A DNA stretch of 64,000 nt from Patescibacteria group bacterium (GTDB lineage Bacteria > Patescibacteriota > Patescibacteriia > 2-12-FULL-57-11), in assembly GCA_004297205.1 (NCBI GenBank), contig SCUL01000002.1, positions 77,156 through 141,155 on the forward strand. The letters are read 5' to 3'. Shown piece by piece: positions 38,383-41,181 of this stretch (positions within the stretch are counted from its first letter, which is position 1; each line of letters begins with the position of its first letter). A model generated the notes under the pieces. It saw nothing but the letters and a program-made list of their open reading frames with translations, made no database searches and was not told the DNA's origin. Position numbers and translations under genes: made by a program.

Positions 38383-41181
38383 TCACGCCCCATGGCACTT
38401 CTTGAACTTCTTGCCTGACCCGCACGGGCAGGGATCGTTGCGGCCGACTTTGTCGGCATCGGGAGCGGCGGTGGGCGGCGCGGCCTGGTTGCCGCTCGTG
38501 AGCTGGTCGCTCGTCTTGGCTGCGCCGGAGAGCGTCATGTCGCCGCGCACCTGCATCTGGCGCATCTGCTCCTGGGCCAGCGCGGCGGCCTGGCCGATCT
38601 TGAAGACGCTGTAGACGATCTGCTTTTGGATTTCTTCCGTGAGCTGGCGGAACATCTGGAAGGACTCGCGCTTGTACTCGACGAGCGGGTCGCGCTGGCC
38701 GTAGCCGCGCAGGCCGATCCCCTGCCGCAGATGGTCCATGTTGTCGAGATGCTCCATCCAGAGCCGGTCAATGGCCTGGAGCATGATGCCGCGCAAAATG
38801 CTGCGGAGCATGACGCGGTCCGGCAGGCGCTTCTCGAGCATGGCCATGGCGGCCGCGGCGTCGGCTTCGAGCGCTTCCAGGATGGCGGTGCGCAGTTCGG
38901 CGTCCTGGAGTTTGGATGCGCCGTTCTTGGGCTGGGGAACGAAGTGATCGCGCGTGGCCGGCGTGACCGGGAAGATGGTGTCGGCCACTTCGAAAATTTC
39001 CTTGAAGTTCCAGTCGCCGCCGGATTCGGCGTTTCCGCCAAAGGCGGATCCGCCTCCGGCGGAGGTGTGGAAGGCGACGACCGTTTCCAGCTCCTCGCTC
39101 ACCATGTCCATGACGCGCGCCCGCAGCAGCGCGATGCCGGCCTCGACGTCCTGTTGGGAAGCGGCCTCGAGCAGTTCACGGCGGCGCTTGTAGATGGTTT
39201 CGCGGTGGCGGTTCAGCACGTCGTCGTATTCGAGGAGGTGTTTGCGGATGTCGAAGTTGTGGCCTTCGACGCGCTTCTGCGCGCCTTCGATGGTCTTGGC
39301 CACCATCTTGGAATCGATCGGCACGTCCTCCGGCACCTTGAACATGTTCATGACCGACTTGATGCGGCCCTCGGCACCGAAAATGCGCATCAAATCGTCC
39401 TCGAGCGACAGGAAGAACTCGGACACGCCCGGGTCGCCCTGGCGGGCCGAGCGGCCGCGCAGCTGGTTGTCGATGCGACGGCTCTCGTGGCGCTCCGTGC
39501 CGAGCACGAACAGGCCGCCGGTGGCGCGCACCTCGTCGGCCATGGTTTTGTCCGGCGGGTTGCCGCCGAGGATGATGTCGACGCCGCGACCGGCCATGTT
39601 GGTGGCCACGGTGACCGCGCCTTTGCGTCCGGCCTGAGCGATGATTTCGCCTTCCTTCTCGTGGTTCTTGGCGTTCAGAACGCTGTGCGGCACGCCTTCA
39701 AGCGTCAACATGGCGGAGAGCCGCTCGTTCTTTTCAATCGAGACCGTGCCGATCAAGACCGGCTGTCCCTTCTCCTGCAACGCTTTGACCTGCGCCACCA
39801 AGGCCTTCAGCTTGCCCGCTTCCGTCTTGAAGATCTTGTCGACCTGGTCGACGCGGGCGTTGGGGCGATGGGTGGGCACCTGCACGACTTCGAGTTTGTA
39901 GATCTTGGAAAATTCTTCGGCTTCGGTGGCGGCCGTGCCGGTCATGCCGGCCAGCTTGTCGTACAGACGGAACAGGTTCTGGAAGGTGACGGTGGCGAGC
40001 GTGCGGCTTTCCCGCTGGATGGCCACGCCTTCCTTGGCCTCGATGGCCTGGTGCAACCCCTCGCTGTAGCGGCGGCCGTGCATCATGCGGCCGGTGAACT
40101 CGTCGACGATGATGACCTGGCCGTCCTTGACCACGTATTCCTTGTCCCTGCGGTAGAGCGCCTCGGCGCGCAACGCCTGCTCCAGGTGGTGGACGGTCCG
40201 CACGTCGGAGGCGACCCATGGGTCCTCACCGAGGAGCTTGGCGACGTGTTCCTGCCCCGCTTCGGTGAAGGTCGACGCGCGCAGCTTTTCGTCGACGTTG
40301 TAGTCGGCGTCTTTGACGAGGGAGCGCGCCAAATCGGCGAAGCGGTAATAGAGCTGCGTGGATTCTTCGGCCGGCGCGCTGATGATGAGCGGGGTGCGCG
40401 CTTCGTCGATCAAAATCGAGTCGACTTCGTCGACGATGGCGTAGTGGAGTCCGCGTTGCACCATGTCTTCCGTGCGCGGCGCCATGTTGTCGCGCAGGTA
40501 GTCGAACCCGAATTCGTTGTTGGTGCCATACGTGATGTCCGCGCCATAGGCCTCGCGGCGCGGCACCGGACGCAGGAACGACATTTCCACGCGGTACACG
40601 CCGCGCGTGTCGCGTTCCTTGTCTTCCTCGCTCCCCTCATGCACGCCAGTCGCTTCTTTCTCCGGTTCAACCGGCACGCGGTAGTCCGGATCGTAACGGA
40701 AGGCCACCTCGTGCTGGATGACGCCCACGCTCATGCCGAGCGCGTGGTAAATCTGGCCCATCCAGACGGCGTCGCGTTTGGCCAGGTAGTCGTTGACCGT
40801 CACGACGTGGACGCCCTTGCCGGTGAGCGCATTCAGGTAGACCGCGAGGGTCGCGGTCAGCGTTTTCCCCTCACCGGTGCGCATTTCGGCGATCTGGCCG
40901 CGGTGCAGCACCATGCCGCCCAGGAGCTGGACGTCATAGTGGAACTGGCCGAGCGTACGCTTGCCGGCTTCACGGACCGCGGCAAAGGCCTCGGGCAGGA
41001 GCTGGTCGATGGTCTCCCCTTTGGCCAACCGTTCGCGGAAGGCGGCGGTTTTGCCGTGAAGATCGGCGTCGGACAGCGCTTTGTATGCGGCGGCGTGGCC
41101 GTTCGTCGCGTCGACCAGCGGCTGGAGCTGCTTCACGACGCGGGCGTTGGGGTCGCCGAAAATCTTGGTCAACAAAGACAT
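38383..41181 (-). CDS. secA: preprotein translocase ATPase SecA (with C-terminal zinc finger and an in-frame Gly/Ser-rich insertion)
   Basis: [21 protein letters not shown]..., DEAD-like motor motifs, and C-terminal ...[17 protein letters not shown]. The insertion ...[23 protein letters not shown]... is encoded by the palindromic element at 39034-39065. Confidence 0.95.
39034..39065. repeat. copy of the 33-nt palindromic element inside secA, in the opposite orientation
   Basis: TCCGCCAAAGGCGGATCCGCCTCCGGCGGAGG is the reverse complement of the mnmA copy. It encodes [17 protein letters not shown]. Confidence 0.75.

Follow-up and report, generated by a model that had tools for sequence, protein, structure and literature searches.

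The 64-kb window analysed here (64,000 nucleotides of contig SCUL01000002.1 from a Patescibacteria group bacterium) contains three copies of a 30-nt double-hairpin element, which lie within the genes for SecA, MnmA and ribosomal protein S11. The original prediction, made from the letters of the window, had placed a palindromic element at 39034-39065 in secA, described it as the exact reverse complement of copies in mnmA and rpsK, and favoured a mobile or recombinogenic repeat. The copies and their host genes, in coordinates of the window, are as follows.

39034..39063, + strand: 30-nt double-hairpin element, secA copy, TCCGCCAAAGGCGGATCCGCCTCCGGCGGA (32-nt string and mismatch search)
39034..39048, + strand: hairpin unit 1 of the secA copy, TCCGCC-AAA-GGCGGA (sequence; single-stranded DNA fold as two 6-bp hairpins)
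39049..39063, + strand: hairpin unit 2 of the secA copy, TCCGCC-TCC-GGCGGA (sequence; single-stranded DNA fold)
38383..41181, - strand: secA host gene, 932 aa, TAK04721.1 (Pfam; 100% match to P0001)
16753..16782, - strand: mnmA copy, exact reverse complement of the secA copy, MnmA residues 259-268 (mismatch search)
16435..17556, - strand: mnmA host gene, 373 aa, TAK04695.1 (Pfam; source annotation)
6019..6048, - strand: rpsK copy, one stem mismatch (GGATTC), encoding SAKGGFASGG, residues 22-31 in the N-terminal tail of S11 (mismatch search)
5629..6111, - strand: rpsK host gene, 160 aa, TAK04680.1, ribosomal protein S11 (Pfam; source annotation)

The 32-nt string TCCGCCAAAGGCGGATCCGCCTCCGGCGGAGG is found on the + strand at 39034-39065, inside secA. 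With up to three mismatches allowed, it matches three sites in the 64 kb: its own position, 16751-16782 (an exact reverse complement) and 6017-6048 (three mismatches). There are no matches in 100 dinucleotide-preserving shuffles of the window. If both loops are left free and three mismatches are allowed, just the same three sites are recovered, a density of about 1 per 21 kb. The predicted string is thus present, but the true repeat unit is 30 nt (39034-39063) and not 32. The trailing GG is flanking sequence: in mnmA these two bases are part of a GGC codon, and a relative with an empty site has that codon too. The exact reverse complementarity holds for mnmA but not for rpsK, which has one mismatch in a stem and three over the 32 nt.

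The hosts were assigned by full Pfam architecture, in the case of SecA by the SecA_DEAD, SecA_PP_bind, P-loop_SecA, SecA_SW and SEC-C domains, and the three proteins are identical to those annotated in the source genome. All three open reading frames (ORFs) are on the minus strand and the element is in frame in each of them. In SecA it encodes residues 707-716, read from the minus (coding) strand; on the + strand its loops are in the order AAA then TCC. All three copies have the loops AAA and TCC, and the loop codons are the sole coding difference between the mnmA copy (K/S) and the secA copy (G/F). The ORFs, the Pfam matches and the reverse-complement match bear out the claim that the element occurs in both polarities relative to translation and yet stays in frame.

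The unit consists of two tandem 15-nt hairpins, TCCGCC-NNN-GGCGGA, in a 6-3-6|6-3-6 arrangement in which the junction of the halves forms GGATCC. In the wider family described below the pattern is TCCGCC-NNA-GGCGGA | TCCGCC-TNN-GGCGGA, comprising 24 stem bases and two variable loops; since the loops obey NNA...TNN, the central 14 nt, AGGCGGATCCGCCT, form a palindrome. As single-stranded DNA the 30-mer is predicted to fold into two 6-bp hairpins or into one long hairpin, with energies of -12.8 and -13.2 kcal/mol (z about -4). Since 30 nt is ten whole codons and the stems are self-complementary, the phase TCC GCC nnn GGC GGA is identical on both strands. In this phase the element encodes S-A-x-G-G-S-A-x-G-G, a ten-residue Ser/Ala/Gly peptide, in either orientation. 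This is the reason why the reversed secA copy remains in frame and still reads S-A-x-G-G twice, and the in-frame position in both orientations, though real, is in itself unremarkable. The other two phases would encode PPxADPPxAE or RRRRIRLRRK.

Diverged copies include compensatory double changes within single 15-nt units (CCCTCC-GGA-GGAGGG at locus L052, TTCGCC-AGA-GGCGAA at L119 and CCCGCC-TCT-GGCGGG at L090). These changes are confined to one unit, which points to the small hairpin as the conserved structural unit; they could reflect selection or hairpin-templated correction. The window contains 36 hairpins of the 6-3-6 form, compared with about 24.5 in shuffles. The excess comes mostly from the TCCGCC element, so a general process generating such hairpins in the window is not indicated. 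Selection for a hairpin in the mRNA is unsupported, since the sense strand of the coding copies among the matches listed has more A-C than G-U loop pairs (36 and 21). No Rfam 15 covariance model matches the window at its gathering score, and around the element there is only a chance match to a microRNA (E = 0.32).

Comparison with relatives reveals empty sites. The ten residues in SecA are absent from 40/40 homologues; these include relatives at 93% (P0002) and 84% (P0003) protein identity, in which FHT-HIG/HAE is directly joined to SG(S/G)DWNF. At the DNA level there is an exact 30-nt gap in two sister sequences, L121 (88.6% nucleotide identity) and L122 (83%). In the comparison of secA with sister lineages that had been proposed, these two relatives and 38 further homologues lack exactly 10 residues or 30 nt. 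At the junction, ACG|CAC of both sisters corresponds to ACC[30]AAC in the window, the two bases adjoining the element being changed (G to C and C to A). In MnmA the ten residues are absent from 39/39 homologues, the relatives lacking exactly 30 nt. An 81%-identical relative reads GTC|GGC where the window reads ATC[30]GGC, an exact 30-nt gap with no duplication, and relatives in general read ATC/GTC|GGC. The rpsK element is absent from 4/4 other members of its 90% protein cluster; the N-terminal tail of S11 is too variable for the empty site to be reconstructed. The flanks of the three window copies share no homology, so that segmental duplication, which the original prediction had named as its alternative, is ruled out for them. 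These alignments show the element to have entered secA, mnmA and rpsK after the lineage split from its closest sampled relatives, and the insertions are independent and recent. The proposal of a mobile or recombinogenic palindromic repeat with independent insertions is upheld by the empty sites and the unrelated flanks.

A further filled site is found in UvrB from a Liptonbacteria metagenome-assembled genome (MAG; L019), which reads F[10-residue insert]KN where 49 relatives read F-K/R-N/D (F-KN, F-KD or F-RN). The F and K are part of the target and not of the element, because the empty relatives already have them.

The insertion boundaries could not be set from alignments to PDB structures, which lose precision in variable regions. 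In the AlphaFold model of MnmA, which like that of SecA was built on the homologue alignments (mean predicted local distance difference test score, pLDDT, 91.8) the insert block 261-270 has a pLDDT of 54 and lies in a coil at 246-274. In the SecA model residues 710-721 have a pLDDT below 50, between helices at 679-706 and 726-734. Both modelled inserts are in predicted disordered, low-confidence loops of otherwise confident folds.

Other small in-frame insertions were seen at these sites. The mnmA gene of relative P0123 (also P0130) has an 18-nt in-frame insertion (RAQLGS, L126:1010) a few codons from the insertion site in the window's mnmA; it is a single 6-3-6 hairpin, CCGAGC-GCA-GCTCGG, of which no second copy was found in the DNA examined. 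Relatives of the Liptonbacteria UvrB (P0242, P0253 and P0255) have other lineage-specific inserts at or near F|K, namely HPPTGG and a 25-residue insert, INPVRN...EISNGI, which would be an inverted repeat at the DNA level. Small in-frame insertions seem to be common in these Patescibacteria proteins.

The element is found well beyond the window. A scan of one genome per GTDB species with the pattern TCCGCCNNNGGCGGATCCGCCNNNGGCGGA (stems fixed, both loops free) gave at least 120 loci, where chance would produce fewer than 0.3 even in DNA of 70% GC. Statistics on the family, here and below, are those among the matches listed. According to the titles of the MAG records, the hosts include many Patescibacteria lineages, Omnitrophota, Kiritimatiellae, Lentisphaerae, Planctomycetes, Verrucomicrobiota, Ignavibacteria, Chloroflexota, Margulisbacteria and others. 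The host loci range from 30 to 70% GC (median 46%) with the same 24 stem bases, these being fixed positions of the search, and the contigs include ones of 0.7-1.6 Mb. The neighbourhoods of the 120 listed copies contain six further exact copies and nine diverged copies. IMG/VR contains only two matches to the family, and 72,556 plasmids and 50,697 phages contain no full-length match. Families of repetitive extragenic palindromes (REPs), transposable elements of the miniature inverted-repeat type (MITEs) and Rickettsia palindromic elements (RPEs) are usually confined to one genus. No description of the element was found in the literature by sequence, peptide or concept.

Two Ignavibacteria (L029:6021 and L072:2838) have the element at a homologous F|D/N position in a C-terminal domain (…VQF|D/N…SGVYFY). 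Their copies match at 29/30 bases, against 76% identity over the whole aligned stretch and visibly greater divergence in the flanks. On this alignment the site would imply repeated insertion at one position, or else homogenisation of the element or a constraint acting on it.

Within any one genome, copies tend to share their loops. Identical loop pairs occur in 12/25 within-assembly comparisons and in 5.1% of those between assemblies, a roughly 10-fold difference with a nominal P of about 1e-9; the comparisons are not independent of one another, and two of the within-genome copies lie in a segmental repeat of locus L005. These shared variants are evidence for proliferation by copying within genomes. 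L005, which is from a Kiritimatiellae MAG, has a direct repeat of about 185 nt (4569-4752 and 6390-6572, 1.82 kb apart) that contains the element, so the element can also be carried along by larger duplications. A helicase-like host protein from Giovannonibacteria (L033) contains two copies, one exact and one diverged (FSAIGGSASSGKK).

All three window copies are intragenic, as are 74/126 copies of the family if an ORF is accepted as confident when it has at least 150 aa and is at least 1.5 times as long as the next-longest ORF over the site. The 62 host proteins match 131 Pfam families and are unrelated to each other; they include DnaG, DEAD/ResIII helicases, several tRNA synthetases, RNA polymerase beta and beta', Pol III alpha/PHP, Mur ligases, PGK, ATP synthase and TsaD. 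Within confident ORFs 64/74 copies are in the S-A-x-G-G phase (phase 0; P = 4e-21). Where only short ORFs overlap the element the three phases are evenly represented (17/13/16). Together with the 30-70% GC range of the host loci, these even phases point to an element at the level of DNA and not of the peptide. The simplest reading is that insertion would be phase-blind and that purifying selection then removes copies in the other two phases.

In the flank profile of 123 copies the three bases before the element are T in 59% (-3), 82% (-2) and 61% (-1) of cases, and A is enriched symmetrically on the 3' side. The combination of T at -2 with A at +2 is found in 83/126 copies; this is a two-sided preference, whereas a one-sided preference would be expected for the IS200/IS605 type of insertion sequence (IS). 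Insertion thus appears to prefer a T-rich | A-rich junction with the consensus tTt|aAa. The left and right flanks show no covariation beyond composition. They are not the ends of a longer palindrome, given this lack of covariation and the F and K already present in the UvrB relatives. The target-site duplications that had been suggested as a check are absent: there is none in mnmA, where the junction is exact, or in secA, the flanks are not direct repeats across the family copies, and only the T-rich 5' and A-rich 3' flanks are seen. The window has about 8 occurrences of GGCGG or CCGCC per kb, too many for microhomology at GGCGG to be informative.

When about 0.9 Mb of DNA around the listed copies was surveyed for perfect X6-N3-X'6-X6-N3-X'6 structures, only the TCCGCC family (130 copies) and one CCACCC-TAC-GGGTGG-CCACCC-GTA-GGGTGG (L064:755) were recovered. 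A scan of Joint Genome Institute (JGI) metagenomes for the CCACCC pattern added 12 loci (L131-L142, for example L132:2970 and L136:1863), giving 13 in total. This second family, CCACCC-NNN-GGGTGG repeated twice, is also 30 nt long; its left flank is TT in 8/13 and its right flank AA in 10/13, and its loops are mostly complementary. Both families are present on the 4.4-kb contig L136 and in genome JBDRMC01. The same architecture, flanks and hosts suggest a common mechanism that reads structure more than sequence.

We consider it probable, at roughly three chances in four, that the element is a non-autonomous, copy-and-paste, mobile palindromic DNA element. Its hairpin or cruciform form would be recognised by an enzyme acting in trans, and 30 nt would be inserted without target-site duplication, at a T-rich | A-rich junction and in any phase. 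Selection would then leave intragenic copies in the harmless S-A-x-G-G phase, as a flexible Ser/Ala/Gly peptide. The best precedent for such an enzyme would be an HUH/Y1 single-strand transposase of the RAYT or IS200/IS605 type, which gives hairpin-dependent insertion without duplication. By analogy with these systems an HUH/Y1 mechanism in particular may be suggested, but we find it doubtful: the two-sided flank preference and the missing GTAG tag do not fit the known HUH/Y1 families.

Several observations count against mobility. No mobilising gene was found beside the copies or in the window, and we know of no autonomous parent element. The secA junction is not clean, two adjoining bases differing from both sisters, and the UvrB case is a net +27 nt, not +30, owing to a nearby codon difference. 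Translation of the inserts is deduced from phase statistics only. The phylum labels are MAG record titles, and some labels of co-assembly MAGs (Gammaproteobacteria, Saccharibacteria) may be unreliable. A mobile-element model explains identical stems across phyla only if horizontal transfer is frequent or the protein that recognises the element is very conserved.

A linked transposase was sought and rejected. The 150 ORFs adjoining 46 likely intergenic copies include no recurrent transposase, with GIY-YIG in 2/150. These ORFs match 152 Pfam families, and the 25 that recur most often do not include a Y1 transposase; a single-member match would go unlisted in this ranking. A regular expression for small GIY-YIG genes found three in about 1 Mb of loci, and the low-GC island of the window encodes nucleotide-metabolism genes and no mobilising gene. 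Within the same 1 Mb or so no IS with ends matching the element was seen; the two 15-nt halves of the element are themselves inverted repeats of each other.

The main competitor to a mobile element is spread by recombination or repair without a dedicated transposase, which we regard as unlikely. Single-stranded or hairpin DNA from another locus or from the environment would anneal via microhomologies at a fork or break and be copied in, as in short-patch illegitimate recombination. The absence of target-site duplications and of a transposase near the copies is in keeping with this route, as is the dependence of bacteria of the Candidate Phyla Radiation (CPR) on DNA uptake. The uneven junctions fit templated repair as well as they fit transposition, and the replaced bases in secA and the +27 of UvrB keep the repair route open. 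Native GGCGG(A) motifs lie at or near all three window junctions, but at the frequency noted above such adjacency is weak evidence. The tTt|aAa preference is common to two families with unrelated stems and is more easily explained by an enzyme than by homology, and the left and right flanks do not covary.

The remaining explanations have far less to recommend them than mobility of the element. It is very unlikely that the palindrome serves as a signal under selection (a DNA-uptake sequence or a protein-binding site, for example) and has accumulated in genomes through that function. Such a signal would account for the high conservation of the stems across taxa and for the 29/30 identity at the Ignavibacteria site, and known uptake sequences also show a reading-phase bias in genes. 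However, these occur at about 1 per kb, compared with three copies in the 64 kb here, and the empty sites of secA and mnmA show the arrival of 30 nt by insertion, not by substitution. The host genes are also unrelated and show no positional logic. Convergence on a Gly/Ser/Ala linker through similar codon usage is scarcely credible, as the original prediction had argued. The peptide is a plausible flexible linker in predicted loops, but the same 24 stem bases, without synonymous codon variation in the stems, are present in genomes of 30-70% GC. Copies outside long ORFs are in all three phases, both orientations occur, and the palindromic structure is irrelevant to the peptide. For segmental duplication, or an artefact of assembly or sequencing, we found no supporting point, and we give this idea almost no weight. 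The flanks of the window copies are unrelated, the copies come from assemblies of many projects and assemblers, long contigs included, and a strong in-phase bias within genes is not expected of artefacts.

The element resembles three known systems but falls outside the definition of each. The RPEs are in-frame palindromes of about 100-150 bp that form ten families (RPE-1 to RPE-10) in Rickettsia (Ogata et al. 2000, as summarised in PMC10969869 and PMC3733652). Like the element, they lie in unrelated housekeeping genes and have no known transposase of their own; they are translated as a fold-compatible extra peptide (PMC10969869, PMC3733652), as the intragenic copies here probably would be. The in-frame insertion into unrelated coding genes that typifies them is also found here, 64/74 copies being in one phase and the hosts spanning 131 Pfam families. 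The element is set apart as a strict 6-3-6|6-3-6 unit of 30 nt in MAGs labelled as many phyla. REPs and REPINs, which are mobilised by RAYT tyrosine (HUH) transposases, are palindromes of 20-40 nt, often doublets, without target duplications, and some are inside replication and repair genes (PMC3733652). The element agrees with them in size and in its two 6-bp stem-loops, in the doublet form, in the lack of duplication and in having intragenic copies. REPs have a GTAG or CGTC tag at one end, are mainly extragenic and lineage-specific, and typically flank a RAYT gene of their genome. In contrast, no GTAG or CGTC tag appears in the flank profile of the 123 TCCGCC copies, which is tTt/aAa; most sampled copies are intragenic, with 74/126 in confident ORFs, and the distribution is cross-phylum.

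Mitochondrial double-hairpin elements and GC clusters of fungi and sponges are short, GC-rich and sporadic, sometimes coding, retained in transcripts, with substitutions concentrated in the loops, and the mechanism that mobilises them is not known (PMC2800124, PMC4478555). The element shares the short GC-rich hairpins, the sporadic and sometimes coding distribution and the variable loops. These systems are organellar and of unrelated sequence, and in yeast, AG or ACT direct repeats border the GC clusters (PMC4478555); no duplication is seen here. MITEs of 70-300 bp (PMC3733652) are similarly non-autonomous with hairpin-forming ends, but they have target duplications and the element consists solely of two hairpins. 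The element is thus distinguished from RPEs, REPs and the mitochondrial elements because it departs from their defining size, tag, duplication or host range. Derivatives of IS200/IS605 insert without duplication next to a short motif. They share hairpins and the lack of duplication with the element, and differ from it in that its flank preference is two-sided.

To our knowledge, in-frame 'selfish' palindromes are textbook material for Rickettsia only. The element described here amounts to hardly more than a pair of hairpins, but its 24 stem bases are found unchanged across MAGs of 30-70% GC labelled as many phyla, in core proteins such as SecA, S11, RNA polymerase, DnaG and tRNA synthetases. 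If mobile, it is among the smallest mobile DNA units known to us and points to an unrecognised mobilising activity common to uncultured lineages. It would also serve readily to trace gene flow between Patescibacteria and the organisms around them, and would explain some of the short Gly/Ser/Ala insertions that complicate CPR protein alignments and phylogenies. The symmetry of the element illustrates how a DNA parasite can pass as acceptable protein sequence whichever way round it lies.

It is possible, although we offer this as conjecture, that the TCCGCC and CCACCC elements form a structure-defined class of 30-nt 'nano-transposons' (6-3-6|6-3-6, T|A-rich junctions, no duplication). The mobiliser might be a single hairpin- or cruciform-specific enzyme, or the DNA-uptake or repair machinery of ultra-small bacteria. 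It might be shared or exchanged among Patescibacteria, Omnitrophota, bacteria of the Planctomycetes-Verrucomicrobia-Chlamydiae (PVC) group and others in the same habitats, and the class might quite generally supply essential proteins with new surface loops.

Two other features of the window were noted. Between about 28000 and 38000 the GC content and the GC content at third codon positions (GC3) are lower, and the GC skew of the + strand turns negative. This stretch encodes HD-domain, MazG-like, NUDIX, kinase-like, radical SAM and SET-domain proteins, and may be an acquired island of nucleotide-metabolism genes. A switch of replichore was considered as the cause of the orientation flip between the copies and rejected, as the change of skew near 28 kb coincides with the low-GC3 island. 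The flip is not tied to a replichore change, because nearly all genes in the window are on the minus strand, and the copies show no bias of orientation relative to replication, both orientations occurring in an apparent single replichore (n = 3 copies).

The second feature is a separate 52-nt double hairpin in uvrC (62766-62817), GTAG-GGGCGCAC-CGATGT-GTGCGCCC-GGGCCGAC-ACGTCG-GTCGGCCC-CTAC. It is in frame and accounts for 17 codons, VGADRRVGPGAHIGAPL, between RRRF and PDLIMIDGG. Its sequence resembles that of a GTAG-tagged REP doublet which has inserted into a gene for repair. GTAG-tagged doublets such as this one are of the kind associated with RAYT enzymes, and their presence in the window and in the sister genome was drawn on for the HUH/Y1 precedent above. 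Similar GTAGGGG...CCCCTAC doublets are found at L122:6140, in the sister genome, and at L035:1806.

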